Assembly: GCA_964593405.1 (NCBI GenBank)
Contig: CAZQIO010000001.1
Coordinates: 2,263-66,262, forward strand
DNA: 64,000 nucleotides
DNA from: an uncultured Candidatus Saccharibacteria bacterium
GTDB lineage: Bacteria > Patescibacteriota > Minisyncoccia > Minisyncoccales > GBS-2
Reading direction: 5' to 3'
The notes beneath the pieces are model-generated. The model ran no database searches. It was not told the DNA's origin and saw nothing but the letters and a program-made list of their open reading frames with translations. Below are positions 27,048-47,187 of this stretch, piece by piece. Made by a program: the position numbers and the translations under genes. Numbering within the stretch: the stretch's first letter is position 1; the number at the start of each line of letters is the position of its first letter.

Positions 27048-27060
27048 AAAGAACGTCTTA

Positions 27061-27130
27061 TTATAATTCACTAATGAGATTTACTGTTTCAACAAAAGGA
27101 TTTTGCGATGTAATAGATATTACCTTTTAA
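27061..27130 (+). repeat. remnant copy A of the yjbQ promoter-proximal 5' end (TATAAT box, ATG, 18 codons then stop)
   Basis: TTATAATtcacTAATGAGATTTACTGTTTCAACAAAAGGATTTTGCGATGTAATAGATATTAC is ~90% identical to 41041-41090 and shares the upstream TATAAT-N4-TAATG with copy B. Confidence 0.6.
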
Positions 27131-27184
27131 AATAAATTAAGTCTAAAGTTTTATACATCCAGTGCGTAAAAACAACCAAAATAA

Positions 27185-28276
27185 ATGTACCATCTTTTCA
27201 GGAAATTGATAGACATAAATTTATTATATTTAAGCAAATATTCTCGCTTTTTTTTAAATTTTATTCAACCAAGGCCGATTGAGGCCAGCTTTAAGGTAAC
27301 TGAGAGGTGCAACAGCCGGTGCATTACCTGTAATGTCTGGAAAAATGTTCCCAAGAATGAATTGACTACTCAAGAAATAGAAAATGTTTTTTATCAGTTA
27401 AGAGAGATAGGAATAAAATATATCGGTTTCACTGGTGGAGAATGTTTGTTAAGGGATGACATTGGTGAATTGATTAAAAAAGCCAAAAAAATATTAAGAG
27501 CAAAAGTTTATATAATCACAAATGGTATATTGTTAGAAGAAAAAGCAAAGATTCTTTTGGAACAGGGAGTAGATTATATCAGCGTTTCCCTTGATGGCAT
27601 AGGAAAAACTGATGAAAAAATAAGAGGAGTCCCCGGTCATTACGAGAAGGTCATAAGAGGAATTAAACGATTAAGAAAATTGAGTTCGGGGAAATCGCCT
27701 CCCATTAATATAGGCACCACCCTTGTCAAACTTAACCTTCACGAAATTCCAAAATTGATTGAGGTTTGTAAAAAATTAAATGTAACTTGGTCGTATAATT
27801 TATTAGATACAAGCCTTTATTTCTTTAAAGGTATTGATACTTCCCAACTATTGGTCAACGATGAGAATTTAGTGGATAAAACGATCGATTATTTATACGA
27901 AATAAAAAAGAAGGACCCCGAAATAATTAACATGAATTTTAAGAGTTTGGAATTTGCCAGAGAGTATCTTAAAAATAAAAAGCCCAATTTCCATTGCACT
28001 ATGGGGTATCTGAGAGTTTTGATAGATTCAAGTTTAAATGTCTATTCAGGTTGTTGGGCTCTTCCTCCGATGGGAAACTTAAGAAAAGAAAATTTAAAAG
28101 ATATTATTAGATCGCCAAAATATAAACAAAGGACAAAACAAATGTTTGATTTAAACTGCCCAAGATGTACTTGCGGTTATGCATTCTCTCTGGCGATTAA
28201 CTTTTTACCTTCAAGTTTGATTGAAGCAATCAAAAATTTTAAGGGGTATAAAACATATCTAAAAATGATAGTGTAG
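27185..28276 (+). CDS. radical SAM protein with C-terminal SPASM/twitch-like Cys cluster
   Basis: CNSRCITCN (CxxxCxxC), GGEC, and a C-terminal ...CTMGY...GCW...CPRCTCGY. Confidence 0.7.
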   Translation: MYHLFRKLIDINLLYLSKYSRFFLNFIQPRPIEASFKVTERCNSRCITCNVWKNVPKNELTTQEIENVFYQLREIGIKYIGFTGGECLLRDDIGELIKKAKKILRAKVYIITNGILLEEKAKILLEQGVDYISVSLDGIGKTDEKIRGVPGHYEKVIRGIKRLRKLSSGKSPPINIGTTLVKLNLHEIPKLIEVCKKLNVTWSYNLLDTSLYFFKGIDTSQLLVNDENLVDKTIDYLYEIKKKDPEIINMNFKSLEFAREYLKNKKPNFHCTMGYLRVLIDSSLNVYSGCWALPPMGNLRKENLKDIIRSPKYKQRTKQMFDLNCPRCTCGYAFSLAINFLPSSLIEAIKNFKGYKTYLKMIV

Positions 28277-28323
28277 TATTGCAAAGCGGATAATCGGTTA
28301 GACCAAGAAACTTAAAAGGGAAT

Positions 28324-28872
28324 ATGATTTTCACTCAACTAGATCTTAAATTACTATTGTTACTTCAGAATTTTCATAACAAGTTTTTGGATTATTTGAG
28401 TTTAGGAATTAGCTGGATTACCGAGGGAGGTTTTATTTGGTTTTTTATTTGTGGGTTAATTTTTCTTTTTGAGAAAAAAGAGAAAAAAAGGAAAATTTTT
28501 TTAATTTTATCAGTGCTTTTGCTGAGTGATTGGCTGGTTAATATTCCTTTCAAGATGATTCTTTTTTGTCGAGAAAGGCCATATAAGGTTATTCCAGGAA
28601 TTAGAGTGATTGGCAAAATCTGGGAAAATTGTTCTTTTCCCTCCGGTCATTTGGCCGTTTCAACGGCCGCTGTTTTGATTATTGGTTATTTGTTCCATTT
28701 AAGAAAAGGCTGGTTTATTTTTTCTTCAATTAGCTTTCTCTTTCTTTTGTCTTTTGCCAGGATGTATGTTGGCATGCATTATCTGAGCGATATTTTAGGA
28801 GGAATAGTTATTGGAGTTATTTCCGCGCTTATCATTATCTATTTTGATAAGCAGATTAACTGGAAATTCTGA
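28324..28872 (+). CDS. PAP2-family membrane phosphatase
   Basis: CRERPY, PSGH, and ARMYVGMHYLSDILGG (R-x5-H-x3-D) motifs. Multiple TM helices. Confidence 0.7.
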   Translation: MIFTQLDLKLLLLLQNFHNKFLDYLSLGISWITEGGFIWFFICGLIFLFEKKEKKRKIFLILSVLLLSDWLVNIPFKMILFCRERPYKVIPGIRVIGKIWENCSFPSGHLAVSTAAVLIIGYLFHLRKGWFIFSSISFLFLLSFARMYVGMHYLSDILGGIVIGVISALIIIYFDKQINWKF

Positions 28873-28912
28873 AGTTAAGATAAAACTTCGACAATTTCTT
28901 TTTTGCCGAGTT
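28873..28912 (+). terminator. possible intrinsic terminator after the PAP2 gene
   Basis: GAAGTT-aagataaa-AACTTC hairpin followed by a T-rich run (TTTCTTTTTTG). Confidence 0.25.
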
Positions 28913-28924
28913 TTTATTTTCATT

Positions 28925-28970
28925 TTATAATGGATTAATGCGCTTTACCGTTTCAACAAAAGGATTCGTT
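28925..28970 (+). repeat. remnant copy B of the yjbQ promoter-proximal 5' end
   Basis: TATAATggatTAATGCGCTTTACCGTTTCAACAAAAGGATT matches the first ~30 nt of yjbQ (41041-41070), then diverges. Confidence 0.55.
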
Positions 28971-29154
28971 GTGAAAACACCAGAATACTCGTTAAAATAA
29001 GACTTCCTCCAAGGAGCGAAATGACCAAGAAAAAGCTGGCAGTTAAGGCTTAATTTTTAATGGGATGTCATCCATATTTTTTGGCATCATGGACAATATC
29101 CCAGCAAATGGCTTAAATTTGAGCTGGAAGTAATGATATAACTGGGTTTTAAGT

Positions 29155-30103
29155 TTGGAAATCACTTCAATCGCAGAACAGTTATTATTCACCGGCGTCA
29201 GGATAGAAAGTATAGTGGTCGAAAATAAACGAAAAATCGGGACAGGTTTTATTCTTGATTACAGAATGGAGGGCAAAAGCTATCCGTTCATCATAACAGC
29301 AAAGCATATTATTAGCGGAGCCGAAGAAGGAGTATTAACTTTTATTAAAGGCAAAAGAAACATACCGCTTCTTGGAGAGGGTTATCAGTTAAAAATTAAG
29401 GATTTTGAGAAAATTTAGTTTAAGCATCCAAGTGAAAACATTGATGTAGCAGTATCACCTTTTGTTCCTATTCTTAACCATATTGCAAATCAAGAAATCC
29501 AAGTATTTTTTAAATCAATACCTAGCGATTTGATTCCCAAAAATGCACAACTAAAGGAATTTGACGCGATAGAGGATATTCTCTTTATTAGGTTATCCCA
29601 TCGGACTATGGGATGAGAAAAATCTTCTTCTTATTGTAAGAAGAGGTATTACCGCAACTCTAGTATTTGTAAACTTTAATGGTGAAAGGCAATTTTTAAT
29701 CGACGCTTCTATCTTTCCGGGTTCTAGTGGAAGCCCTGTTTTTATTTATGACAGAGGAATTTATTGGAACAAAAAGTCAGAAGCTACGGTTGGTGGTCAC
29801 AGAATCTTCCTTTTAGGAATTCTTTCAGCTGTTTTTCGGATGCCCGATAGAGGAGAATTGATCTTTCCAAGCGAACGAATACACACCCTTACAGAGCATG
29901 GCGAAGCAGTGTTTTTTACGAATGAAAAAGTGAGGATTAAAGTAAATCAACTAGCAGACTTAGGAATAGTTTTTAAATCAGAGATAATAATTGAAACTAT
30001 AAACAAGTTTCTGAAAGGAAACGTAATGCATGCCTATGGCGCTCCACAATATTTCGCATACATAATCGATAAACACTTACATAATAGCCTCCTAATCCTC
30101 TGA
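29155..30103 (+). pseudogene. trypsin-like (S1/Trypsin_2) serine protease, disrupted by an in-frame TAG (29416-18) and a frameshift near 29590
   Basis: Catalytic triad segments lie in three frames or pieces: ITAKHII (His), NIDVAVS (Asp), and IDASIFPGSSGSPVF (Ser, GxSGxP). Confidence 0.6.
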
Positions 30104-30273
30104 ATACAAATCATGGAACCATGAATAATATCTCACCGAGTGAATTAAGTTTGAACTGGAAGTAAAAGTGTGATGTTATAGCAGCATCTTTTAGCATAGA
30201 AAGAGATGATTAAATAGCTAACTAAAAAATTATTCTTCTTTAACTGTCTCCTTAACATAAGCGATTTTGGGTT

Positions 30274-30471
30274 TTATTGTTTCTTTTCTTTCTTCTTTAC
30301 AAGCCAGTAGACTATTCCAGCGATTATCCAGCATATTATCGTGCTTATTGGCGTGGAGGAACAGTGAGCGTAGTGGCCTAGCAGGCAGGATCTACTTGCG
30401 GGGGCGGGGATTAATGTTGAAACCCCTAAAACAATAAATATTACTATTAGAACCCAGTGATACCCCTTCAA
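30274..30471 (-). CDS. small two-TM membrane protein (hypothetical)
   Basis: 65-aa ORF with two hydrophobic helices and a Lys-rich tail. Confidence 0.25.
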   Translation of the reverse strand: MKGYHWVLIVIFIVLGVSTLIPAPASRSCLLGHYAHCSSTPISTIICWIIAGIVYWLVKKKEKKQ

Positions 30472-30866
30472 TAAATTTTCCTCCTATATATCGGATGTTA
30501 TTATTTTAACTCAAGATGTTTATAAAATTTTGGATGATAACAAGGATTAAATCTGCATTTCTCACACCTTTTAATGGAGTTGGTATAATGCCGCGGAATG
30601 CTCAAAGGTTATTGATAAGATTCTAGAGATGTTGATGGATGAAACGCTACCCTCAAAGAGAAAATAGAGAGATGGAATAATCTTTCAGAGAAGTTTGCCG
30701 AGTGCATAGGTGGGCGTTTAAAGGAGTTAGTAAAGGAAATGAAGATAACTGAATTAGAGGTGCAGAAGCTAGCTCAGGAAATTTTAGAAGAAGCAACCAT
30801 ATACGCTAAACATCATCGTGAAAATTAATAGTTTATCAATTTTAAGAATAAAAGCCTGAATAAAAT

Positions 30867-31795
30867 TCAATTTAAAACTTTAAGCCCAGCCTTATCATAG
30901 ATTTCCTTCAGTTTCTCTGGGCTGAAATCCGTATAATGTCTTGCAAGTACGCTTCTTGGAACCCTTCCGCAGAAGGCATCAACATATCTGTCCGGGACGC
31001 CTAGTTTTCCCATTTCGCAGGCAAACCATTCCCTCAATATTTGAGGCGTAATGCTTAAACCAGTTTTCATTCTGGCATCGAGGAATATCCTGTGCTTTTC
31101 GTTCGTCTTCATCGGGAAGAGTTTATCGCTCTTTTTTAGCCTAATCTTTAGTCATTCCTTTAAAGGTTTTTCAGCCTCTTCGTTGTAGAAGGTTATGTAG
31201 CTTCTTTTTGTTCTGGAATTATGTCGGGGAAATATCGTTCTCTTTTCAAAATCGATGTCGCTTAGCTTCAACTTTAGGGCTTCGCTTCTCCTTAATCCAG
31301 AGGAAGCTAATAAAAGAAAGATCGCCTTTTCTCTTAAATCCTTCAAGGCTTGGTAAAATCTTTGAAGCTCTTCTTTTGAAGGGACCTTTTTAATCGTTGG
31401 GCTTGGATTTGGGAATTTGAAGCTTGGACCAAGTCTGGCCTTCCTAAGAAATCTCTGAAAAACCTCTACAAAGCCTTCAACATGTTGGCATAGCTATACG
31501 GATTTCCATCCCTCAAAGTTAAAAGGAAACTCCTAATATCTCCAACGCTCGGGAAGTCAATGCCATTTTTCTCTATCCAAGCCAAAAACTTCCGCACATT
31601 GTAGATGTGTTGCCCCACCGTCTGTTTCGAAAGCTGAAGGTTAACCAAGCAAAATTCTGCGAATTTCCTCAGCACTTCCTGGAAATCAGATATTCTCTCA
31701 AAGTTATTCTCCTCATTCTCCATTCTCCCTTCAAATTGTCCCAATTTGAATTCTAAGCCATCTTTGAGCCTGTCACGCTGAGGACCCGGGTTCAA
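30867..31795 (-). pseudogene. tyrosine recombinase/integrase (XerC/D-phage integrase family), one frameshift (~31470-31495) and one in-frame TGA (31152-54)
   Basis: N-terminal SAM-like domain (ISDFQEVLRKFAEFCLVNLQLSKQTVGQHIYNVRKFLAW). Catalytic box I LLLASSGLRRSEALKLKLSDID. Box II ITPQILREWFA...RSVLARHYTD with the Tyr. Pieces 2 and 3 are in the same frame across the TGA. Confidence 0.75.
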
Positions 31796-31813
31796 ATCCC
31801 GGCGGCCACACCA
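31786..31813 (+). other. orphan tRNA 3' fragment (T arm + acceptor 3' strand + CCA): candidate att core
   Basis: CCGGG-TTCAAAT-CCCGG, then CGGCCAC, then A-CCA. No complementary 5' acceptor strand (GTGGCCG) lies upstream. Abuts the integrase N-terminus. Confidence 0.55.
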
Positions 31814-32061
31814 TTCATCACTGTTTTTTTGTCTCCTTTTTTCCGTAAAGAGGTCTTAATTGTTTTATTGCCATTTTCAAAGCATTTTCACAAGTCCTTG
31901 AAATATTCAAGCCCAATTCCCTTGCCTCTTTAACAACATCCTCGTCGATATAGATGGTTACACTTATTTGCTTACCCAATTTTATTTGCCTCCATTTGGA
32001 ATTATGTGGAAATCAAATTTAAGGATTTCGCATGCAAAGCCATGCGCCCTGAGGATGGAGA

Positions 32062-32859
32062 ATGGCGATGGCGAGAATAGTGAGAATAAAGTTGTATAAG
32101 AATTCTCTAGGAAATTTTTATGAAGAGGAGAAAGAGATGTCAGAGGCTGTTGCGCCGAGAAGGTTTGTCATTCCGAGGCTTTTGGCTTGGGTTATGGTTT
32201 TTGCTGGAATAGGCATATTCGTTATCGGTATTCCATTTCTTATGTATAGCCTTTTCATGTTTAGTTTTGTTAGGCGCTTCGACCCTACCGGCATTATCCT
32301 GATGATCGTTGGTGCAATCGTCTTTTACGTTGGATACAAAAATACGGGCTTTATACTGACTAAGGAAGAGATAGTAGATAGGTGGAGCGTTTTAGTTGAG
32401 AACGGCAAGGGAAAGGCAAACGAGATCTTCGATGATACCGAAGGCTTCATTAGGAAAAGCCAAGCTCCAAGGATTGCTGTCGAAAGGAGGGAAATTGTCC
32501 CTACGATAACAAAGGACATCCTGGGCGTGAGGAGAAGGTTTTTGGTCGTTACTAAACTTGAGAATCCAAAGCTTTTGAATTACAAGACCTTCATTTGCGC
32601 TAGGGATTATGGAAACAACCTCGATGTTTCGTGGTATTTAACGTATAAAATGGGCTTTTTCGAAGCTTTATTGAACCTATTATTTCTCAGAGGAAGATTT
32701 GTTCCAAAACTTGACTTGTTCGACGAGCAGGATTTAAGAGCTTATATGACAAACGTCCATCACTGCCTTTTAAAAGCCGTTGAATCTTTAATGAAGAGCT
32801 TGGGGCAAGACTTTTCTAAGGTTGACAGAAAATCTATAGGTTTCTTGGGCGTTAGTTGA
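32062..32859 (+). CDS. membrane protein (two N-terminal TM helices + ~180-aa soluble domain), hypothetical
   Basis: Hydrophobic segments LLAWVMVFAGIGIFVIGIPFLMYSLFMF and GIILMIVGAIVFYVGY. 4-nt overlap with the downstream ATPase. Confidence 0.4.
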   Translation: MAMARIVRIKLYKNSLGNFYEEEKEMSEAVAPRRFVIPRLLAWVMVFAGIGIFVIGIPFLMYSLFMFSFVRRFDPTGIILMIVGAIVFYVGYKNTGFILTKEEIVDRWSVLVENGKGKANEIFDDTEGFIRKSQAPRIAVERREIVPTITKDILGVRRRFLVVTKLENPKLLNYKTFICARDYGNNLDVSWYLTYKMGFFEALLNLLFLRGRFVPKLDLFDEQDLRAYMTNVHHCLLKAVESLMKSLGQDFSKVDRKSIGFLGVS

Positions 32860-34142
32860 TGGGAATTCTTGATAGGCTGCTTAGGCGGAAAAAGAAGGAA
32901 AAAGAGGAGGTTGAAGTAGAGGAGAAAGTCGAAGAAGCTCCAGTCGAAGTTGACGAGGGAAATGTTGTAAACATTGGCTGGTATTGGTCTGAGCAAAAGC
33001 AAGAGTGGCAGATGGCAAAGATTAAAGAGGAGGATAGGAAAGTTCACTTTTACGTTGTCGGTGCCTCTAGAACTGGAAAGTCAAAGTTCCTTGAGTTTTT
33101 GATTAGACAAGACATTGAAAAGGGAAATGGCTTCGGAGTAATCGACCCTCACAGGGATTTGATTGATGATATTAAGGCTTATCTAACATTAGCCCTGCCG
33201 AAAGAGGAGTTGGAAGAGAGAGTTGTAGTAATAGACCCAACAGATGAGAGGTATACCGTCGCCTTCAACCCTCTTGAGAAGATCAAGAAAATGTTATCTG
33301 CCGAGATAGCAGCCGAGCTCGTCGAAGCCTTCAAGAAGATTTGGGATTATGGGAGCGCCATCGAAACTTACGGTTGGGGTGCTAGGATGGAGGATTTGCT
33401 TAGGAACTCGCAAATAGCCCTAATAGAGGCTGGACTCACGCTATGCGACCTACCACGTTTTCTAATAGAGGATGACTTTAGGGAGAACGTCTTGGAGAGG
33501 GTTGAGCATCCAATAGCAAAGAGGTATTTCCAGAGGTTTAATGCCTTAGCCCCAAAAACGAGAGAGGAATGGATGGAATCTACACTGAACAAAGTCAATG
33601 CTTTTTTATCAGATGATAGGATCAGGGAGATATTCTCATTCCAAAAATCTTCTTTCAATTTCAGGGAGATAATGGATAATAAGAAGATTTTGTTAATTAA
33701 GCTTGATAAGGGAAGGCTGAAAGAAAATGCCGACTTGCTGGGTGCGCTATTGATGACGAAGATCAGGATGGCTGCGTTCTCGAGGTCAAACGTTCTAAAA
33801 GAGAAAAGAGTCCCATTCTACCTTTACATTGACGAGTTTCAAAACTTTGCAACCAAAACATTCATTGAAACTCTGAGCGAGGCTAGAAAATATGGCTTAT
33901 CACTTATAATGGCCCATCAGAATCTTTCTCAGTTGCCGAAGGAATTGCAAGATTCAATTTTAACTAACTGCGGAATCCAATGTTACTTCAAGGTCTGTAG
34001 AAGAGATGCTGAAATATTAGCTAAAGAAGCTTTTGAGACGAGTGGTGTTGAGGTAAAAGCAGTAAAACTTTCGAGGGAGTACTCTGATTACGATTGGTTC
34101 ACATATTCAGAGGATTGGGAAAAGTACATTCAAGAGCTATAG
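32856..34142 (+). CDS. FtsK/HerA/TraG(VirD4)-superfamily P-loop ATPase (DUF87-like), no TM segment
   Basis: Walker A VVGASRTGKS. Walker B LYIDEFQNF. C-terminal RKYGLSLIMAHQNLSQLP signature shared by T4 coupling proteins and HerA. Confidence 0.6.
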   Translation: MMGILDRLLRRKKKEKEEVEVEEKVEEAPVEVDEGNVVNIGWYWSEQKQEWQMAKIKEEDRKVHFYVVGASRTGKSKFLEFLIRQDIEKGNGFGVIDPHRDLIDDIKAYLTLALPKEELEERVVVIDPTDERYTVAFNPLEKIKKMLSAEIAAELVEAFKKIWDYGSAIETYGWGARMEDLLRNSQIALIEAGLTLCDLPRFLIEDDFRENVLERVEHPIAKRYFQRFNALAPKTREEWMESTLNKVNAFLSDDRIREIFSFQKSSFNFREIMDNKKILLIKLDKGRLKENADLLGALLMTKIRMAAFSRSNVLKEKRVPFYLYIDEFQNFATKTFIETLSEARKYGLSLIMAHQNLSQLPKELQDSILTNCGIQCYFKVCRRDAEILAKEAFETSGVEVKAVKLSREYSDYDWFTYSEDWEKYIQEL

Positions 34143-34194
34143 CAGTTGCCAAACAGATGTTTTTGGGCAAAACACAAAATTGAAGGTGGTGTAA

Positions 34195-35103
34195 TTCCAC
34201 TGTACACTGTGGGAAATTAGGCAAGCTTATGAGGAGTTCGGTGTAGAGAAAGAGGTTCAGGATAAAATTCTGAGTGAAGTTGTCTTCAGTAAAAGGTATC
34301 TTTTAGAGAGAAAGCCCAAGGAAGTTGAAAAGAAGGTTAAGGAAAAGTCTAGTGAGGAAGAGAAGCTCACAGCCTTAGAGGAAATTATTGCAACATTAAC
34401 ACCTTTTGAGAAGGCGATTCTATGGGCTATAGGTGTTGGAAACTACAATTCAGCAGACATATACGAAGAGGCGAATAAGAAACTCAAAGAATGGGGTTGC
34501 TCAACCAGAAAATACTCAGAGTTTAAGAAGAAGTTTTATGAGTTTGCCAAACTACCTAAAGAGGGAGGTAAAGGATTAATAGAGTTTAGAAAGCTTGGCA
34601 GGAGCTTTTGCTATTGGCTAAGTAAGTGGGGAGAAATTGCATTTGCTGAAAAGTTTGGAATACCTTCTGATAGGGCGATAAACGAGCTTGGAGGTGGAAG
34701 AAAGCCATCAAAAACCGTAGCCTTGGAAGTCATAAAGGAGTGGCTTGAACCAAATGGATACAAGGTTAAGGCTGAGGAGGAAATAAAAACCGATTTGACC
34801 GAGAGAGGCAGAGGCTACACTGATTGGGTTGCCGAGAAAAATGGTGAAGTTTTGAGGATTGAGATTGAGCATAGAAGCCAAAAAGAGCAAGTGGAGAGGA
34901 ATATAAGGAAGAACTTAGAGTACTCAGATACACTCTACATCATAGCGAGCGATGAAACGGCGAAAAGAAAAGTTATTCAAGTTGCTTTGAGAACATTATT
35001 TAGGCTGAGGAAAGAAAAACCCGATGAAAAATGTGTGGTGAAGGTAGCTGACATTGAAGAACTGAAAAGGAATAGTTGGAATAAGTGGTTCGAGATAAAA
35101 TGA
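34195..35103 (+). CDS. winged-helix + PD-(D/E)xK nuclease-like protein; open frame of ~300 codons with no ATG/GTG/TTG before 34723
   Basis: Frame opens after the TAA at 34192-94. C-terminal GYTDWVAEKNGEVLRIEIEHRS resembles a PD-(D/E)xK core. The track only reports the TTG at 34723. Start lost, or non-canonical. Confidence 0.4.
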   Translation, partial: FHCTLWEIRQAYEEFGVEKEVQDKILSEVVFSKRYLLERKPKEVEKKVKEKSSEEEKLTALEEIIATLTPFEKAILWAIGVGNYNSADIYEEANKKLKEWGCSTRKYSEFKKKFYEFAKLPKEGGKGLIEFRKLGRSFCYWLSKWGEIAFAEKFGIPSDRAINELGGGRKPSKTVALEVIKEWLEPNGYKVKAEEEIKTDLTERGRGYTDWVAEKNGEVLRIEIEHRSQKEQVERNIRKNLEYSDTLYIIASDETAKRKVIQVALRTLFRLRKEKPDEKCVVKVADIEELKRNSWNKWFEIK

Positions 35104-35152
35104 AGGAAAACCTTATATGAGGAAAATCCACCTTTTCTATAAGTGAGAAAAA

Positions 35153-35518
35153 TTGGAGCGTTCAACTAGGAAATATAAGGCAACAAAGTTACCCGTTGAA
35201 GTATTTGATGAAGCCGAGTTAGTGAAAGCTAAGCTAATTATGAATAGGGAGGCTTTAAAGAAGCTTCCTTCAGAGGGTGCGAACCCAGCTAAATGTCCCC
35301 TTGGCGGTAATGATTTGAGGGTTGCCGAAGTTAAAGTGGCGGTAAAAATGGTCTCGTGTCAACGTTGCGGTTACAAACAACCGTCCCTAGACGTATCCAG
35401 CATTGGAAACGATCCTGCGGCAATCGCTGGAGCGTTAGGTCTGGGAGTTCTAGCGGGTCTCGGTATAGCTGCATTGCTATATTTAATATTTAGCGGTGAA
35501 AAGAATGAGCGAAGTTAG
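35153..35518 (+). CDS. small Zn-ribbon protein with C-terminal TM anchor (hypothetical)
   Basis: CPLGG...CQRCGY (two CxxC-like pairs), then AAIAGALGLGVLAGLGIAALLYLIF. The 35153 start is TTG; the first ATG is at 35240. Confidence 0.35.
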   Translation: MERSTRKYKATKLPVEVFDEAELVKAKLIMNREALKKLPSEGANPAKCPLGGNDLRVAEVKVAVKMVSCQRCGYKQPSLDVSSIGNDPAAIAGALGLGVLAGLGIAALLYLIFSGEKNERS

Positions 35519-35895
35519 GATAAAAGTCCAGGCAGATTTGAATATCATTAAAGAATTACTGATAAGAGAGGGTTTTACGATCCGGGCATTTTGCAGACTT
35601 GGAAAGAAGGCCAGGTATTTGGATTAGCTAAGCCGTTAAATTATCTAATCGAAGTTCACGTTAGGGGTTTTGCGGATAATACTTTAGATGCCGAAATAGA
35701 GTTATCACGTGAATATCTAGAACATCCCTACGACGGGAAACCTTACTACGGTTTTCTAATCGAGAACTCTAACTAAGTGGAAACCCATGCTTTTTGTACT
35801 ATGTATCATTTGTGGAATATGTGGATTTTTTGCAGTTTTAGAAAGATTCGGCTCGAAGGATAATTCATTGACAAAATTAGAAGAGGAATGATACA

Positions 35896-37179
35896 ATGGA
35901 TAGAATGTTTGTGAGATTTTTATCAGAAATAAAGGAACCAAAAGCTTCAGAACTTGGAGGAAAAGGCTATTCATTAGCTGTTTTAATGAATAACGGATTT
36001 AACGTCCCGAAAGGCTTTGTCATAGTTTTAGATGCGTTCTTTGAGCATCTTAAAAAGAACGAATTGATGGAGAAAGTTAGAGAACTAGTAGCTAAAATCA
36101 ACGAGGGGAATTTTCAAAAAAAAAGCAGAGAAATTAAAGAGTTAATATTGAGCGGAGCAATACCTGAGGAAATTGCCTTAGAGGTAAAAAATGTCTTAAA
36201 TAAATTAAATGTTCAGTATGTTTCTGTTAGGTCATCTGCTGTTAGCGAGGATAGCTTAAAAGCTTCATCTGCGGGAATGCATGATACATTCTTGAATGTA
36301 AAATCAGAACCAAAACAGGTTTTAGAAAATGTGAAGAAGTGCTGGGCATCTTTATTCAATGAAAGAGCGATAATATACAGAATTAAGAAAAAGCTGCCTC
36401 ATTTAGAGGGAATGGCGGTTGTAGTTCAAGAAATGATACCAGCTGAGGTTTCTGGGGTCGCCTTTACTGCCCACCCAACGAACAAAAAGTTTTTACTTAT
36501 TGAGGCTTGCTATGGAATTGGTGATATGGTCGTGGGTGGTAAGGTGGAGCCAGATGATTATGTGGTGAATAGAGAAACTTTAGAAATAATAGAAAGAAAG
36601 ATTGGCAGGAAGGATAGAATGAGCGTTATTGAAAATGGAAAAATTAAAGTTATTGATGTCGAAAAGAAACTTGCTGAAAAACAGGTTTTATCTGATAATG
36701 AGATAAAAGAAATCGCTGAAACTTGCCTAAAAGTCGAAAAAACATTTAAATATCCTCAAGATATTGAGTGGTGTATCTCCAAAGATTTTATATGGATTCT
36801 ACAATCACGAACAATAACCGCGACATCATTGCTTATTGGAGAAAAAACAAAAATAAAACCGATTTTGAGCGGATTAGGAGCAAGCCCCGGTATAGTTAAA
36901 GGGAAAGTAAAAATTATTTTAAGTCCGAGGGAAGTTAATAAAATGAATGATGGTGAAATATTGGTTACTGTAATGACTAATCCACTATATGTTACTGCAA
37001 TACAAAAAGCCAAAGGAATAGTTACAGACGTTGGTGGCATACTTTCTCATGCAGCTATTGTAGCAAGGGAGCTTGGAATTCCTTGTGTAGTTGGAACTGA
37101 AAAAGCGACAAAAATACTGAAAGATAATATGGAGGTTATTGTAAATGGTACAGAGGGTAAAGTTTATGCACCAGACTGA
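35896..37179 (+). CDS. PEP-utilizing-enzyme family phosphotransferase (PPDK-N ATP-grasp + phosphohistidine 'mobile' domain, no PEP/pyruvate TIM barrel)
   Basis: ELGGKGYSLAVLMNNGFNVPKGFVI (PpsA N-terminus) and C-terminal GGILSHAAIVARELGIPCVVG with the swivel His. Confidence 0.7.
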   Translation: MDRMFVRFLSEIKEPKASELGGKGYSLAVLMNNGFNVPKGFVIVLDAFFEHLKKNELMEKVRELVAKINEGNFQKKSREIKELILSGAIPEEIALEVKNVLNKLNVQYVSVRSSAVSEDSLKASSAGMHDTFLNVKSEPKQVLENVKKCWASLFNERAIIYRIKKKLPHLEGMAVVVQEMIPAEVSGVAFTAHPTNKKFLLIEACYGIGDMVVGGKVEPDDYVVNRETLEIIERKIGRKDRMSVIENGKIKVIDVEKKLAEKQVLSDNEIKEIAETCLKVEKTFKYPQDIEWCISKDFIWILQSRTITATSLLIGEKTKIKPILSGLGASPGIVKGKVKIILSPREVNKMNDGEILVTVMTNPLYVTAIQKAKGIVTDVGGILSHAAIVARELGIPCVVGTEKATKILKDNMEVIVNGTEGKVYAPD

Positions 37180-38260
37180 TGATTTAATAACTGAATTATT
37201 CAGAGTTACAGGAGAGGCAATCTACGATACAGATATGCAACACGGGGATGGTAGGGATTATTGGCCCTTTCATCCAGTATTTTTAGATTCTCTTGTTGCT
37301 CCAATAGTGTTTAAAGAAATTTTAAGGATTATTGAAACATTAGAAAACAAAGGCTACACCCTAACAGACATTGCAGAAACAGTATACAGTCCAACTAAAA
37401 TAGCTAATTACCAATATTTGTGGCCAGAAAAAACAATCAAATCTTTAACCTATGACGAAAAATACAAGCTCGCAAAATATTTCGTTGAGTTACTAACGAT
37501 TTTGAGAAATGGTGAACCTTTTTGTGAGAAAGGAAGAAACTTGGTATGGACCAGAAAGAACTTAATCCAAAATATAGAAAAATATAAGAAAGATTTTGTA
37601 AGTGCTAAACAAAACCCTGAAATGGCTCAACTTTTGTCGAAGCTAGAAGGAATTCTAGTTTCTTATGCGGAAGCGCTGTACTATTACATGATTGACTTAT
37701 CACGTATGATGCATGGTCCTTATTCACTTGAAAATGGATCTACTGTTTTTGTAAAGGAATATCTTCACTTAAAGGCTGGAGAACTTTGGGATGTGGTTTC
37801 AGATTTCCCTTTTGACCATTTTAAAGAGATCGGAATTTATCAAGGCATACAAATAACTACTTTCTTTATGGGACATACACACTCAAATCCACCTTTCCCA
37901 AAAGCAATAGATAAATTCGTTATAATCGTAGATGATAAAGTAATAAAAAATATGGACGAGCTGAGAAATTTATATGAAAAGGTAAAAGAAGTAACAGAAA
38001 GAGCAGCTCGATGTATAGCAGAAAAGTCTGGCGATGAAGCTTTTCTTCTTAAGAAGGGAATTGATATGTTTTTCTATCCATTAAAACCTCTCTACAAGGA
38101 AATAGGAGAGAACTGGAAAGATATACTTCCACAAGCATATAAGTTTGCATATAATGTGAAAGATAAAATAAAAGTTCCTGGACCCTGGGGTGATTGGAAT
38201 AAAGAGAAAGCAGTAAGTCACCTTCTAAAACTAATGGATTTTCGGAGGAAAGCAAGATGA
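37166..38260 (+). CDS. hypothetical protein, translationally coupled to the phosphotransferase (ATGcaccagacTGA overlap)
   Basis: 365-aa ORF starting MHQTDDL. No motif recognised. Confidence 0.4.
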   Translation: MHQTDDLITELFRVTGEAIYDTDMQHGDGRDYWPFHPVFLDSLVAPIVFKEILRIIETLENKGYTLTDIAETVYSPTKIANYQYLWPEKTIKSLTYDEKYKLAKYFVELLTILRNGEPFCEKGRNLVWTRKNLIQNIEKYKKDFVSAKQNPEMAQLLSKLEGILVSYAEALYYYMIDLSRMMHGPYSLENGSTVFVKEYLHLKAGELWDVVSDFPFDHFKEIGIYQGIQITTFFMGHTHSNPPFPKAIDKFVIIVDDKVIKNMDELRNLYEKVKEVTERAARCIAEKSGDEAFLLKKGIDMFFYPLKPLYKEIGENWKDILPQAYKFAYNVKDKIKVPGPWGDWNKEKAVSHLLKLMDFRRKAR

Positions 38261-38484
38261 TAACAGAGTTCTGCAGTTACAAGCAAACTCTAATAAATAT
38301 GATGAAGATTATCCGTAAACCTATAGAATCTTTTGCTATTGATACAAACACCACTTACCTTTACTTTGAAAAAACGCTTTACCTCCAATAGGTCCAACCA
38401 ATTCTAGAGAAAACTATATGATGCCTTTTCTTATTTTAGTAACCAACCCCCTGTTCTCATGTCTTAAAGCATGGTGGATGTACG

Positions 38485-39183
38485 ATGTGCGGGTATTCAA
38501 ACCTAGCTACCTTTAAAGATAATATTACCGGAGATGTGGTATACGAACAGTTTAGAAGGGGGTTTGAGATTATCAAAAAGATTCCTCACCATGAAATGGT
38601 TGCTATTGGAACCGCTGGCTCATTTTTAGACCCACATGAAGTTCCATACGAAATCCAAGCAAAAATAATAAAAGAACTTAACTCTTCAGGTGATATATAC
38701 TACATAAACATTGAAATAAGAGCAGAATATGTGACTAAAGAATCTCTTGAAAATTTGGTAGAAGTAGTCGATGATCCACATAAGTTAGCTATTGGAATCG
38801 GTTTAGAAAGTTCAAATGAGCTTATAAGAGAGTTATGTGTCAATAAATGTCTACCTATCGCCTCTTTCATCCGAGCTAAAAGATTGCCTGAAGAATTGCG
38901 AAAAAATGTACTTATTGCGACTCCAAGATTGCCTAAGCCCTTAGAACTTAAAGTAAGTGACGGTGCTCAGACGGCAATAGAATTATTAAATGAATATAAA
39001 GGCACACTAGACTATAATTATATCGATGCTATAGATGCCCTTTCAAGCTCTGATAAGAGAAAATGGTATGAGAATTTGGAAAGAGAAATGAACAACTCTG
39101 ATTCAATAGAAAAACCAATATCTACGAACTTTAGCCGTTGGCTGGAGGCGTGGAAAAATGAGCATGGAAGAATATTTCAATAA
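38485..39183 (+). CDS. hypothetical protein; in-frame upstream extension carries a C-x8-C-x2-C cluster
   Basis: MCGYSNLATF... Upstream in frame, PTPCSHVLKHGGCT runs back to a TAA at 38440. Possibly a truncated metallo or radical-SAM-like enzyme. Confidence 0.3.
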   Translation: MCGYSNLATFKDNITGDVVYEQFRRGFEIIKKIPHHEMVAIGTAGSFLDPHEVPYEIQAKIIKELNSSGDIYYINIEIRAEYVTKESLENLVEVVDDPHKLAIGIGLESSNELIRELCVNKCLPIASFIRAKRLPEELRKNVLIATPRLPKPLELKVSDGAQTAIELLNEYKGTLDYNYIDAIDALSSSDKRKWYENLEREMNNSDSIEKPISTNFSRWLEAWKNEHGRIFQ

Positions 39184-40286
39184 AAATAAAGAAAAACTTA
39201 AAGAGGTTTACGAGCTATTCCGGAATACAGATTACGGCAGGGAATTAAATCTACCCCCAGAATTTAATGATTACAACACTTTTAAAACTTTACCCCTCAT
39301 AGATCCACGAAAAGTAGATTTTAAGCGACTATTTGTTCCAGGCGATAATTTGTGGTCTTTTATATCTAGTGGAGTGTCGGGACATAGGAAGATGGTAATG
39401 AGCGATATAGGAACTATTACTAAGTATCCAGAAGAAATGGATGAAATCTTAAGAACTAATACATCTGTATTTCTCCACAGTAAGAGGAGAAAAGGTGAAA
39501 GGAGATGTACTCTTCATAATAGAATATCCCCTGATGGCAGAATGGATTTGTTATCAATTAGAAAAGGCTATAGAAGCAGGAAAAATATTTCCCGGGAATA
39601 TTAGGAAAAAGAAAGTATATTTCGAATTAAGTGGAGAACCTGTTACTGAGGAACAAGTCTGTAACATTGTAAAAAGATTAGAGAAAATATTTCAAACAGA
39701 AGTAGAATATTCTATTACATACGGCTCTACTGAGATTGGGCTTATAGGAACGTATATTCCAACAATTCATGGTTCCAAAATTAAATATGAAGTAATTCCA
39801 TCGCTTTTTGTAGAAATAGTCGATGGGGAAATAATCATTACTCCTTATAGGAAACAAGGGACAATATTATTTAGATACAAAACCGGAGACAAGGGCAAAC
39901 TATTTTTTGAAAATGGTAAACCATTCTTGAATGTAATTGGGAAATCTGAAAGTGAGGGGATTATGTATGTTGCAGGTGTTCAAGTATGCATCCCAGAGCT
40001 AGTGGCAGAAATAGAAAAAATAGCAAATTTTCCAATCGGAATAAAGGTCATCAAAAAGAAGGATCGGCCGAAAGGAGTATGCGAACTTGATATTAAAATT
40101 CATATACCTCGGCGTGATGCTTTAAGTAATAGTTTAAAAAATGCCATAACAGAAAAAACTAAACAGTTCATTACAGATTCTGCTGTTTTGTCGGTGGAAA
40201 ATCATTTAGGAATAGTGAAAATAAATATTCATTATTCTTCTGAACCTATAAAAAAAAGGTTCATTATTGAAAACTTAAAGGCATAA
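39158..40286 (+). pseudogene. PaaK/F390-synthetase-like adenylate-forming enzyme, frameshifted near 39495-39604
   Basis: ANL motifs SSGVSGHRKMV (A3, P-loop-like) in the first piece and YGSTEIG (A5) in the second. Confidence 0.5.
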
Positions 40287-40449
40287 ATCAAGATAATGGA
40301 TGCATAATTCCTTATCAATGAACTCATTGCAAAACTCTTAGCGAACGTTTAAACTGTTAGCTTAAGCAATGAGGTTTCGCAATTGGCTCAATAATAAAAA
40401 CTTAGAATACAGAAGCTATTCTAGAAGAACGAAAAATATTAAACCATTG

Positions 40450-40535
40450 CTTTGTGGCTTAATTATGTACCTTCATCAACTTTCACATCAAATCCTATCA
40501 TCAACCTATGTGGGGTTGAGAGTTAAGCCACAAAG
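40450..40535. repeat. 13-bp perfect inverted repeat CTTTGTGGCTTAA ... TTAAGCCACAAAG with 60-nt spacer
   Basis: Arms at 40450-40462 and 40523-40535, inside the 750-bp noncoding right end of the island. The track ORF at 40369..40572 that spans it is probably spurious. Confidence 0.45.
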
Positions 40536-41040
40536 CTTAATATTCCACTTTTCCAAATATTGCCTCTCTTAACTTTCCAATTTAATACCCTCAAATATTG
40601 ATGCGTCAATGTTAAGCTATCATATACTTTCTTGCCTCTGAGGGTATGGAGCGATTTCTAGTGAAGCTTGGGTTTTATTTTAATACCCCTATCTTATTAT
40701 TCGGTAAACTGGTATAGCTAAAATCTCATCACTTTCAAGCCTTTCAACGTCTATTGCCTTGAAAGCATAGAGCTTCTTTCCAACTTCAAAGAATAGTAGA
40801 TCCCAATAATAGCCTTTCCTAATCCATATTACTGGTCTCTGGCTCAAAATGGCATTTTTCATTTTTAAAATTGCTCTACAATCAGCGTATTTCGTTCTAT
40901 ATTTTGAGTCCTCTTGCTACTATACACTACTCTTACAGTGAAGTATCTTCCCTAAAGCATACTATCTGAAGGAAAGAAATAGTTGGCTTTAATCGCTGAA
41001 GGCTTTTTATTTTTGGGAAAATAAATTATACTGAAATAAT

Positions 41041-41451
41041 ATGCGCTTTACTGTTTCAACAAAAGGTTTTTGCGACATAATTGATATTACTTCAAGGGTT
41101 CAAGAGGCGGTCAAAAAAGCAGGGGTTAAAGATGGTTTTTGTATTGTCTCTTGCCCAGGATCTACGATTGGAATTACAACGATTGAGAATGAACCAGAAC
41201 TTTTGAAAGATTTCAAAGAACTTTTGGAAAAATTGATCCCCTCTGACAAAGAGTACCGCCATGACAAAGTTTGGGGAGAAACCAACGGGTTTTCTCATTT
41301 AAGGTCTGCTTTGATTAAACCTTTTTTAACAGTGCCCATCGAAAATGGAAAATTAATTTTGGGCACCTGGCAGAATATTGTTTTTATTGATTTTGATTCA
41401 AGGCCAAGGGAAAGAGAAATTTTGGTTAAAGTTTTTGGACAAAGGTCGTAA
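41041..41451 (+). CDS. yjbQ: YjbQ/UPF0047-family protein (integration-target gene; intact copy)
   Basis: MRFTVSTKGFCDIIDITSRV...GTWQNIVFIDFD family signature. Confidence 0.7.
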   Translation: MRFTVSTKGFCDIIDITSRVQEAVKKAGVKDGFCIVSCPGSTIGITTIENEPELLKDFKELLEKLIPSDKEYRHDKVWGETNGFSHLRSALIKPFLTVPIENGKLILGTWQNIVFIDFDSRPREREILVKVFGQRS

Positions 41452-41452
41452 A

Positions 41453-42376
41453 ATGAATCAAAAAATAAAAATGTCAGAAAAAATTTGGAAAATTTTTGGC
41501 ATTTTTGGAATAGTTTGTTTGGTTGGAATTTTTCTTGGAGGAATTTTGATATCTTTGGGAGGAATAAAAAGAAAGACAATGACCCCAGCTTATTTTGAAA
41601 AAGTTGAAACACCAATGGGAATTGGCGGTGGGCTAGAAAAAATCAATTTACCCTCTCCTGAAACACCACCTCCTTCTAATCTTGAGAAAGAAATTCCTTC
41701 AAGAATGATCATTAAAACTGGCTGGTTAAATTTAGTGGTTAAAGATATTGGAGAAGCGATAAAGAAAATTTCGAAATTTGTTGAAGAAAATGGCGGTTGG
41801 GTTGTTTCGAGCAATGTTTATGAAACAGAGAAAATTCCTTCTGGAAGTATTACTGTCAGGGTGCCTGCAGAAAAGTTTGACCAGGCTAAAGATTATTTTA
41901 AAAGTTTAGCAGTGAGAGTGAGCAGCGAAAGCACTCAATCTCAAGACATCACCGAAGAATACGTCGATTTACAATCTAATTTGAGAAATTTGGAGGCAGC
42001 GGAAGAGCAACTTTTGGAAATAATGAAGAGGGCAGGAAAAATTAACGAGGTTTTAGATGTTTACCGAGAATTGACCAACATTCGCCAGCAGATAGAAAAG
42101 ATAAAAGGGAGAATGCAGTATTTGGAGCAATCTGCCAAAATGTCATTAATCACTGTTAATTTGGCCCTTTCTGAAGAGTTGCTGCCTATTCCACCAGGCG
42201 AAAAATGGAGGCCAAAGTATGTATTTTTGCAAACCTGGAAAAGCGTTTTGAATTTCTGGAAAGGCTTTTCTTACTTTTTGATCAAATTGGTAGTTTGGTC
42301 TCAAGTTTGGATTCCGACTTTGATTTTGGTAGCAGTTTTCATCAGAATCTGGAGGAAAAAGAAAAGAAAAGTTTAA
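41453..42376 (+). CDS. membrane-anchored coiled-coil protein (DUF4349-like)
   Basis: N-terminal TM, central coiled coil (LQSNLRNLEAAEEQLLEIMKRAG), C-terminal TM. Start at the ATG MNQKIKM. Confidence 0.4.
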   Translation: MNQKIKMSEKIWKIFGIFGIVCLVGIFLGGILISLGGIKRKTMTPAYFEKVETPMGIGGGLEKINLPSPETPPPSNLEKEIPSRMIIKTGWLNLVVKDIGEAIKKISKFVEENGGWVVSSNVYETEKIPSGSITVRVPAEKFDQAKDYFKSLAVRVSSESTQSQDITEEYVDLQSNLRNLEAAEEQLLEIMKRAGKINEVLDVYRELTNIRQQIEKIKGRMQYLEQSAKMSLITVNLALSEELLPIPPGEKWRPKYVFLQTWKSVLNFWKGFSYFLIKLVVWSQVWIPTLILVAVFIRIWRKKKRKV

Positions 42377-46849: not shown

Positions 46850-46889
46850 CTAACCACTAAAAAATAATTACTAAAAATCACTAATTTTG

Positions 46890-47187
46890 TGGAGATGGCG
46901 GGATTCGAACCCGCGTCTGGGGGTTGACCTGGGTCTCCCTCTACGGCTATAGTCGATTTTTTAGTCTATCTGGAATACTAGTAAATCGACAAACCTAGTA
47001 TTCCACTCAAAGAAATAAAGAACAACCCCCTCAACTATGACACCTGTTCCCTAACCGAGGGGATTTAGGGACAGGCGCTTGTCTACCCGATAATTAAGCG
47101 TAGACAAGAGCAGGAGTTTGTGTGGCAGGATTTTTGGCCGCCAGAAACCCAGGTTCCTTTCCCCCATCGATTCCAAAAACCATCCCC
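46890..47187 (-). ncRNA. ssrA: tmRNA (ssrA), ~298 nt
   Basis: 5' GGGGAUGGUUUUUGGAAUCGAUGGGGG... The 3' end is ...GCGGG-UUCGAAU-CCCGC-CAUCUCC-A. The acceptor pairs with a G3:U wobble (alanine identity). Candidate tag ORF ...GCU CUU GUC UAC GCU UAA. Adjacent to smpB. Confidence 0.65.

Follow-up and report, generated by a model that had tools for sequence, protein, structure and literature searches.

The stretch analysed here (the window) comprises 64,000 nucleotides of contig CAZQIO010000001.1 (assembly GCA_964593405.1, positions 2,263 to 66,262, forward strand), which is deposited as an uncultured Candidatus Saccharibacteria bacterium of the Candidate Phyla Radiation (CPR). It carries the 5′ end of the gene yjbQ (UPF0047) three times on the plus strand and in direct orientation—copy A at 27074–27125, copy B at 28938–28966, and copy C, the start of the intact gene, at 41041. 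Between the copies lie segment 1 (27131–28924) and segment 2 (28964–41040, about 12 kb), and downstream of copy C follows a conserved backbone of DUF4349, MFS, and PolX. The first-pass annotation of this DNA had read the arrangement as two serial site-specific insertions into the yjbQ 5′ end, which is retained here for segment 2 and given up for segment 1. With a probability of a little under 60%, copy B, segment 2, and copy C together represent the fossil of a site-specific insertion by a large serine recombinase (LSR), and copy A is a separate relic of rearrangement. The coordinates of all features are collected in Table 1.

The three copies are present at essentially the positions at which they had been annotated. 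The 26-nt core ATGCGCTTTACTGTTTCAACAAAAGG has exactly three matches in the window at up to three mismatches and none in 100 dinucleotide-preserving shuffles. Copy A is 88% identical to copy C over 50 nt—close to the ~90% first given—and its reading frame indeed stops after 18 codons, with a TAA at 27128. Five of the six differences between copies A and C are synonymous as read from the aligned sequences, and an nhmmer profile of 66 yjbQ genes matches copy A at nt 1–52 only (E 1.5e-10). Copy B, annotated as a copy of ~30 nt, is homologous to yjbQ over nt 1–29 only, is identical to copy C at 27 of these 29 positions, and breaks after yjbQ codon 9. The longest identical run common to copies B and C is 14 bases; the borders of the B/C repeat are sharp, with unrelated sequence on both outer sides. 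Upstream, copies A and B have TATAAT-N6-ATG in common, in line with the TATAAT context noted earlier, and the sequence upstream of copy C is a different one with a TATACT box.

Table 1. Features at the yjbQ locus, with positions and strands in the window
Feature	Position	Strand	Remarks
Copy A	27056–27130	+	TATAAT 27062–27067, ATG 27074, yjbQ nt 1–52, then unrelated sequence
Radical SAM/SPASM gene	27185–28276	+	Pfam Radical_SAM 5e-27
PAP2 phosphatase gene	28324–28872	+	Pfam PAP2 7e-19
Copy B, putative left junction (attL)	28920–28966	+	host promoter TATAAT 28926–28931, ATG 28938, yjbQ nt 1–26/29
X, putative degenerate remnant of the last ~38 codons of an LSR gene	28962–29133	+	starts ATTCGTTGT; assigned by nhmmer and position
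D3a, tail repeat of X	29082–29133	+	part of X
Trypsin-like peptidase cassette, degraded	29134–30113	+	repaired translation Pfam Trypsin_2 6e-7
D3b, second copy of the X tail	30114–30165	+	77% identical to 29082–29133
65-aa open reading frame (ORF)	30274–30471	−	73% nucleotide identity to L097 1082–1279
Tyrosine integrase pseudogene, archaeal type	30867–31723	−	Pfam Phage_integr_3; frameshift ~31466–31480, in-frame TGA ~31152
tRNA 3′-end-like fragment (T arm, acceptor, CCA)	31776–31813	+	GGTTCAAATCCCGGCGGCCACACCA
CcdA-like small DNA-binding protein	31818–31979	−	Pfam CcdA 1.8e-9
265-aa protein (function not assigned) and type IV coupling-protein-like ATPase (VirD4/TraG family)	32062–34142	+	G+C 0.41
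Right-hand cargo	34723–40572	+	two small ORFs, PPDK_N/PEP-utilizer enzyme, 371-aa, 232-aa, frameshifted gene, 67-aa ORF
Copy C, intact yjbQ (UPF0047)	41023–41451 (gene 41041–41451)	+	Pfam 1.3e-37; TATACT promoter-like box

The locus was compared with 80 metagenomic loci encoding YjbQ relatives, supplemented by several exact-protein look-ups. Across these loci, a backbone of HD, DUF72, DUF72, a variable region, YjbQ, in part DUF4349, MFS, and PolX is conserved, and the yjbQ 5′ end normally occurs only once. The gene content upstream of yjbQ varies over the 80 loci, mostly without any repeat. Relatives free of the insertion, which the first-pass annotation had sought, exist for segment 2: PAP2 is followed directly by yjbQ in seven related loci, which represent the empty site, and the attL/attR-like repeats share a short core with this empty target site.

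The breakpoint of copy B recurs in independent loci, five Parcubacteria contigs besides the window in all. A degenerate search for the first nine yjbQ codons yielded extra fragments in L062 and L072, and an exact-pattern scan of GTDB genomes yielded L092, a Ca. Nealsonbacteria metagenome-assembled genome (MAG). In these Parcubacteria loci and, in decayed form, in L098, an additional yjbQ 5′ fragment is cut after ...AARGGATT—the same breakpoint as in copy B—and is followed by ATTNGTTGT and ~110 nt of conserved sequence, termed X. Islands adjoining yjbQ in other CPR genomes, which the first-pass annotation had suggested searching for, are thus at hand. The inserts of these loci are unrelated and 1.25 to 5 kb in length. 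L072 carries a ParE-type toxin–antitoxin pair along with a Cys-rich protein, L062 a NUDIX gene together with an aspartyl protease, L092 a pair of membrane proteins, and L098 an insert of 5 kb; none of the four encodes a recombinase. The fragment carries the lineage-specific codons of the resident gene in the window (CGC), L062 (S-I-R), and L092 (S-I-H), where the two differ at one to three positions, each the third of a codon; in L072, 8 of 29 positions differ. In L092 and the window, the identity between fragment and resident gene reaches from the ATG to GGATT and the flanks are unrelated. A target-site duplication was rejected, as it does not account for the synonymous changes that separate the fragment from the resident gene, nor for the 8 of 29 differing positions in L072. 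As an observation on the target itself, yjbQ codons 7–11 (T-K-G-F-C) often form the near-palindrome ACAAAA-GGA-TTTTGT centred on the breakpoint in many loci (e.g., L007, ACAAAAGGATTTTGC), plausibly a half-site arrangement of a recombinase.

The sequence X links this breakpoint to a recombinase gene. A profile of X from five Parcubacteria loci matches the 3′ end of a 584-aa gene in the contigs L096 and L097 (nhmmer, E 1e-21 to 1e-23), which, together with L095, are the contigs bearing the closest relatives of the tyrosine integrase of segment 2. The 584-aa gene features the domains Resolvase, Recombinase, and Zn_ribbon_recom and is, hence, an LSR. It is present in full in the related elements L097 and L096, and contig L099 starts inside another such gene. 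In tblastn against the Parcubacteria loci, only the last 33–52 residues of the LSR match (E 8e-10 to 8e-6). The copies of X among Parcubacteria vary in a codon-like manner—third position more than first, first more than second (e.g., 6/2/12 by codon position)—and, hence, diverged as parts of working genes, which argues for separate insertions. In addition, a profile search yielded small ORFs with the C-terminal peptide of X behind unrelated N-termini. Two other assignments of X were discarded. The idea of a stand-alone small gene or a −1 frameshift product of the yjbQ start, which had arisen from the codon-like conservation and the start codons in some copies, was superseded by the match to the LSR 3′ end; the idea of a diverged continuation of yjbQ fails as the nhmmer yjbQ profile stops at nt 29–34 in copy B, L062, and L072. 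Weak peptide matches out of frame inside yjbQ are not significant.

The intact LSR genes resemble yjbQ directly to the left of the X boundary. Here, 26 nt match yjbQ 5′ ends in register at 18 of 26 positions, a value reached by only 0.04% of random 29-mers, and the +1 frame of this stretch reads M(N/S)SSH-RFVLSTKG, which would provide yjbQ with a start codon and an N-terminus. The shared breakpoint and a recombinase with a yjbQ-like site together identify the yjbQ 5′ end as a recurrent attachment site, as the first-pass annotation had proposed. An exhaustive search with the tail of L099 yielded the protein P0246, encoded on a 2,435-nt JGI/IMG contig, which is 81% identical to LSR residues 318–547 and terminates in ...FCFKHEG-FL-stop, precisely at the boundary with X; read in the −1 frame, the yjbQ codons K-G-F-C-D give EGFL-stop. 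This suggests that P0246 is the expected other half of a split LSR gene, and further suggests that the attachment site lies inside the recombinase gene, so that insertion would split it. The C-terminal half is found at attL in the Parcubacteria loci and an N-terminal half that ends at the junction as P0246, with no locus carrying both. A separate observation concerns P0018, a 137-aa YjbQ (ENA, NCBI; MFRASFSLSTKG...) whose N-terminus MFRASFSLSTKGFCD departs from the usual MRF...STKG and resembles the RFVLSTKG that the element would supply; a right junction may have left this protein with a hybrid N-terminus. None of the 120 closest YjbQ proteins begins with the predicted MSSHRFVLSTKG. Scans of IMG/VR with the junction pattern, the LSR protein, and an X pattern gave no matches.

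Segment 2 is colinear with the LSR-bearing contigs on the DNA level. Window 31813–30873, which contains the tRNA-like fragment and the integrase, aligns with L097 82–1023 at 70.6% nucleotide identity—the integrase shows the same 70.6% to L095–L097—and window 30472–30272 aligns at 73% with L097 1082–1279, the interval separating the tyrosine integrase from the LSR gene. D3b is located at the place of the LSR stop codon in L097: it lies 107 nt beyond the match of the 65-aa ORF, and the LSR stop lies at 114 nt in L097. A CcdA-like ORF occupies the same place in L095 and L096. By this colinearity, the left 3 kb of segment 2 is the same module as in L095–L097, from the recombinase tail to CcdA; it breaks off inside the recombinase gene, where the host yjbQ start is attached.

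The tyrosine integrase, implied as the enzyme by the first-pass annotation, did not stand up as such. Its best homologs are 64–69% identical, and its nearest named relatives are archaeal MAGs (unclassified archaeon, Aenigmatarchaeota, Bathyarchaeota; 57–66% identity). The tRNA-like fragment beside it is unique in the window at up to three mismatches, is not a full tRNA, and has no tRNA gene within 9 kb; the same fragment, with one mismatch, occurs at the same position beside the integrase in L095–L097, and both there and in the window it is in frame with the integrase ORF. Neither a second copy of the fragment nor a full tRNA is present at the other end of the island, and the window holds no other tyrosine integrase of the Phage_integr_3 family. 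The integrase pseudogene lies 1.9–2.8 kb from copy B, and its tRNA-like site is intact and internal to the island; thus, the tyrosine system is present but did not make the junctions. Other routes were likewise rejected. A structured RNA or tRNA at the junctions is not found, since an Rfam gathering scan gave only a tmRNA and three tRNAs elsewhere, and a Xer/dif-type insertion, as by integrative mobile elements exploiting Xer (IMEX), finds no dif-like sequence in the repeated core on inspection. Two further observations concern the integrase. In L095–L097, an upstream ATG would place the tRNA-like site inside the ORF (MRRRLKKQFPNLWCGRRDLNPG...), the self-splitting arrangement of the SSV (Sulfolobus spindle-shaped virus) type, and the element may thus carry two self-splitting integrases. 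In the window, the only in-frame stop of the integrase is a TGA at 31150–31152 (minus strand), where the reconstruction places a Trp, by a simple TGG-to-TGA change or, less likely, as the trace of a donor reading TGA as sense.

The same structure is present in an independent assembly of this genome, ENA ERZ1669417, in which two contigs cover the region: NODE_123 reaches from the bacterial backbone through copy B, X, and the integrase to 32529, and NODE_149 starts at 32694 and takes in the coupling protein, yjbQ, and the backbone, both at equal coverage (10.5 and 10.2). In a different sample, Logan DRR163687, the order copy A, segment 1, copy B, and left part of segment 2 is reproduced at 99.8–99.98% identity by contigs L003 (23898–28963) and L101 (28934–32679). 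The structure is, therefore, not an assembly artefact. L003 and L101 overlap by exactly 30 nt, that is, by k−1 for a Logan graph taken to use k=31, which points to a branch node and not to a coverage gap. The sequence common to copies B and C ends with the base at 28963, and the hidden branch would most simply be the empty site with the left of B joined to the right of C. The empty-site junction would then read ...TTATAATGGATTAATGCGCTTTACCGTTTCAACAAAAGG joined to TTTTTGCGACATAATTG..., and a circular junction would read the sequence upstream of C, the core, and then ATTCGTTGTG. Exact-protein look-ups with YjbQ and DUF4349 matched no DRR163687 contig. Elsewhere, both assemblies break at window 32530–32700, inside ORF 32062–32859, where contig ends differ from the window in clusters of positions; the samples contain a diverged allele or second copy of this ORF, perhaps in other hosts of the donor element.

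In the favoured reading, the element would be kin to the archaeal-type contig elements with an LSR and a tyrosine integrase, the latter system remaining unused here, and would have inserted into codon 9–10 of yjbQ. The attP site would lie inside the LSR gene, ~38 codons before its stop, and would mimic yjbQ over its first ~29 nt. The crossover with the chromosomal copy would have fallen within ...AARGG(G)AT.... The left product would be the host promoter and the first 26–29 nt of yjbQ fused to the LSR tail (copy B and X), and the right product an LSR gene that lacks its tail and runs on into yjbQ, for which the element would provide a new start codon in another frame. Later decay would have removed the LSR body and placed a cassette into the recombinase tail, and remodelling on the right side would have given yjbQ back an ordinary promoter and 5′ end.

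Several points weigh against this reading. The window contains no LSR gene with Resolvase, Recombinase, and zinc-ribbon domains; only the tail remnant at 28962–29133 is left. Tblastn with two LSR proteins at E 20 finds neither an LSR body nor a right junction beside the resident yjbQ, and this absence holds for the window and for the other Parcubacteria loci with the junction, where the resident 5′ ends are host-like. Secondary loss or remodelling must, hence, be assumed each time. The replacement 5′ end that the first-pass annotation had assigned to the element is not borne out: the 5′ end of copy C is not visibly the element's, and the junction of recombinase and yjbQ is absent. The X profile has a single match in the window, at 28962–29032; this X is weakly similar to the profile (E 0.017) and carries a deletion, and the case rests on position, colinearity, and the relatives. 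The yjbQ DNA profile does not detect the LSR 3′ region by nhmmer—the in-register comparison is the sole significant test of this stretch—and the read-through of P0246 into yjbQ is deduced from three residues and a stop. Furthermore, a common core of ~7 nt plus a similarity of ~26 nt exceeds the typical needs of serine-integrase sites. The alternative branch of the Logan graph follows from the contig overlap and was not directly seen. The finding depends on confirming the right junction.

Segment 1 differs from segment 2 in kind. It consists of the radical SAM/SPASM and PAP2 genes named by the first-pass annotation, which Pfam confirms, and is without a recombinase or any mobile-element hallmark. 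PAP2 (60–70% identity) is located directly upstream of yjbQ in the seven empty-site loci (L017, L019, L028, L031, L032, L082, and L091), and L082 features the order PAP2, yjbQ, radical SAM (67% identical to that of the window), and DUF4349. In addition, M10 lies directly upstream of yjbQ in four loci. No fragment cut at the breakpoint of copy A (nt 52) is found in any other locus examined. With a unique breakpoint, the lack of mobile hallmarks, and the adjacency of yjbQ and radical SAM mirrored in L082, copy A is read as the 5′ stump of a separate yjbQ allele, probably produced by ordinary rearrangement and not by an integrase; the annotation of segment 1 as an integrated element is, accordingly, abandoned. 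A further yjbQ allele would once have stood upstream of the radical SAM gene, as in L082, with M10, isochorismatase, yjbQ, and radical SAM as the predicted precursor order; copy A would be what a deletion, or an exchange with DNA of a related lineage, spared of this allele. Against this part, no yjbQ 3′ remnant is demonstrable between 27126 and 27184. As a point for genome annotation, short 5′-end stumps of a gene within one locus can differ in origin.

Among the rival explanations, a single ancient scar is unlikely but survives best. Here, one fusion of yjbQ nt 1–29 with a recombinase tail would be the vertically inherited left border of a hypervariable slot, in which homologous recombination exchanges the cassettes, and the 29 nt would stay similar to the resident gene through gene conversion. 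The loci L062, L072, L092, and L098 have genes upstream in common (LPG_synthase_TM, GT2, radical SAM) and may be one clade, the fragment is decayed in L098, the recombinase body is present in no locus, and the inserts are unrelated cassettes, some with short repeats of their own (D3 in the window, the tails in L072, the hairpin in L092). However, close relatives with PAP2 followed by yjbQ and without the scar would require many independent precise losses; the codon-like divergence of X is unexpected of a vertically inherited dead remnant; and gene conversion tracts are not expected to stop at the ATG and GGATT, where the identity of fragment and resident gene ends. In addition to intact LSR genes containing this sequence, there is an LSR that ends at the junction, and the island of the window is colinear with a complete element.

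A little less likely again is an origin without any site-specific enzyme—by RecA-dependent patching with DNA acquired from related or unrelated genomes, either through homology-facilitated illegitimate recombination or through single-crossover insertion of circles, with yjbQ and the downstream backbone as homologous anchor. Nearly all differences among copies A, B, and C are synonymous, which is what alleles of separate lineages brought together would show; the stumps follow native upstream neighbours of yjbQ (M10 then A, PAP2 then B); and the variable upstream content of the 80 loci, mostly without repeat, fits as well. For copy A, this is the preferred reading. For copy B, it leaves unexplained an LSR protein ending at that exact residue, and likewise the independent loci that differ in host sequence and insert yet break at the same nucleotides and carry the same recombinase tail.

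The model of the first-pass annotation, in which two integrase-type elements entered the yjbQ 5′ end serially or nested, each with a replacement 5′ end and promoter, so that copies A, B, and C represent attL, a hybrid att, and attR, is very unlikely. It draws on the three direct copies with sharp borders, the upstream TATAAT context common to A and B, the integrase and coupling-protein genes of segment 2, and the existence of such an architecture in dusA islands (PMC4482086). Opposed to this, segment 1 holds only two native neighbours of yjbQ, copy A is cut at nt 52 and copy B at nt 29 with the A-type junction nowhere else, and the only integrase is an archaeal-type pseudogene with its intact tRNA-like site beside it, 2.8 kb inside the island. 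Finally, a chimera in which an archaeal element contig was joined wrongly to a Parcubacteria contig at short repeats is scarcely credible: the G+C jump, the archaeal-type genes, and the break of two assemblies at 32530–32700, where variants exist, would fit, but NODE_123 and NODE_149 span backbone to island at equal coverage, L101 from the other sample spans 28934–32679, the 14 or fewer consecutive identical bases of B and C are too few to mislead an assembler, and both outer flanks are syntenic with relatives.

With respect to known systems, the favoured reading places the element next to the large serine integrases (phiC31, Bxb1, A118, SCCmec Ccr, SPbeta SprA), with which it would share the domain set (Resolvase, Recombinase, and zinc ribbon); these enzymes integrate unidirectionally into specific sites, often in genes. 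The insertion site is comK for A118, spsM for SPbeta, and, for SCCmec, the 3′ end of rlmH, whose codons are restored. In the textbook systems, however, attP is adjacent to the integrase gene instead of within its coding end and has little in common with attB except the central dinucleotide. The dusA-specific islands and prophages, which carry tyrosine integrases of the dusA-associated integrase (DAI) type, insert in the 5′ end of their target gene, supply a new 5′ end, and leave the displaced end as a remnant on the far side (Farrugia et al. 2015, PMC4482086). They have the 5′-end target, imperfect direct repeats, and recurrence in many genomes in common with the present locus (PMC4482086), where copy B would be the remnant 5′ end and copy C the intact gene. 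Insertion into a protein-gene 5′ end, with replacement of that end, is uncommon, as the first-pass annotation had it, but has already been described (PMC4482086). In contrast to the dusA islands, which have a tyrosine integrase at the junction and 21-bp semiconserved att sites, the present system would use an LSR family with its site in the 3′ coding end of its own gene; the host is a Parcubacteria (CPR) bacterium, and no recombinase survives. No tyrosine integrase of the DAI type adjoins the target gene in the window; the only one is the archaeal-type pseudogene, 1.9–2.8 kb away from copy B.

The closest parallel to the proposed attachment site is found in archaea. The SSV-type "suicidal" tyrosine integrases carry the att site inside their ORF, and integration splits the gene and hinders later excision (PMC8371274, PMC7253208). 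An attachment site inside the recombinase ORF and a split gene at the two element ends would be common to both systems. The SSV-type enzymes are, however, tyrosine recombinases with tRNA targets and an N-terminal split, and are stated to be exclusive to archaea (PMC8371274); here, the enzyme would be a serine recombinase shortened by no more than its final ~38 codons and directed at a bacterial protein gene, and the tyrosine integrase of the window, with its tRNA-like site, is unsplit. A literature search retrieved no paper on a serine integrase splitting its own gene or on CPR serine-recombinase elements, which is an absence and not proof of novelty. The gene yjbQ itself is named as an island hotspot in Vibrio cholerae (bioRxiv 10.1101/2024.07.25.605194). 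This defence-island hotspot resembles the present locus in yjbQ being a recurrent site next to mobile elements; it belongs to another phylum, and the report is silent on a 5′-end breakpoint, a repeat, and the recombinase type.

A wider hypothesis is tentative and, on present evidence, rather unlikely: that DPANN-type archaea and Parcubacteria have in common an element family with two integrases that split themselves—an SSV-like tyrosine enzyme directed at a tRNA gene and an LSR with attP in its own last ~38 codons that mimics the yjbQ 5′ end. Insertion would then amputate the LSR tail and give yjbQ a new start codon in an alternative frame of the LSR. This would be the first "suicidal" serine integrase and a route for cross-domain gene flow between ultra-small episymbiont groups. 

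Apart from this wider hypothesis, an attachment site inside the LSR gene would extend self-splitting integrases beyond the archaeal tyrosine enzymes and suggest a built-in one-way lock; in addition, such a compact recombinase-plus-site module could be of use in genome engineering. Mobile elements of CPR bacteria (Patescibacteria) are poorly known, and the locus provides a recurrent attachment site, yjbQ codon 9–10, along with a candidate recombinase family. The module of the island is 70–73% DNA-identical to elements with archaeal-named integrase relatives, and this is direct evidence from sequence that archaea and CPR bacteria of a shared habitat exchange mobile DNA.

The island survives as a fossil, without the LSR body and with the tyrosine integrase, the peptidase, and a third gene reduced to pseudogenes. 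It had been annotated as a ~12 kb island of higher G+C; the insertion stands, but the raised G+C is limited to 31–36 kb (0.39–0.42 compared with 0.35 overall), with 29–31 and 36–41 kb being host-like. The peptidase cassette carries one in-frame TAG (29419) and one frameshift. Cassettes with imperfect direct repeats of their own, 35–52 nt long, recur: the repeats 29082–29133 and 30114–30165 flank the peptidase pseudogene in the window, those at 318–372 and 903–955 of L072 the ParE/antitoxin pair, and those at ~2760–2810 and ~3820–3865 of L092 (reverse complement) two membrane ORFs. The repeated sequences are the end of the recombinase tail and, in L092, a terminator-like hairpin with a promoter. 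This looks like a second insertion process on a smaller scale inside the islands. An integron or cassette array was rejected, with no IntI-like gene and with D3a, D3b, and the L072 tails not self-complementary on inspection.

The coupling ATPase is supported by Pfam T4SS-DNA_transf (6e-12), TraG-D_C, and TrwB, and is 36% identical to its homolog in the archaeal element L093. A further homolog, 41% identical to that of the window, lies at 16292–17272 of L076, 6 kb downstream of a distant YjbQ (57% identity), and L076 may contain another element of the family at a different site. The right-hand cargo is host-like in G+C. Its ORFs of 148 and 263 aa at 39158–40286 are one gene split by a frameshift, without a Pfam match even when repaired; with this gene and the unassigned 371-aa and 232-aa neighbours, the PPDK_N/PEP-utilizer enzyme at 35896–37179 may form a small biosynthetic cluster. 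At 5.5 kb downstream of yjbQ, next to SmpB, the window carries a tmRNA gene (46887–47187, minus strand, Rfam 89.5 bits), which confirms the host as bacterial; no island adjoins this tmRNA locus. DUF4349 (window 41378–42376) is present or absent among close relatives, and in L082 the radical SAM gene lies between yjbQ and DUF4349; hence, both sides of yjbQ are variable.

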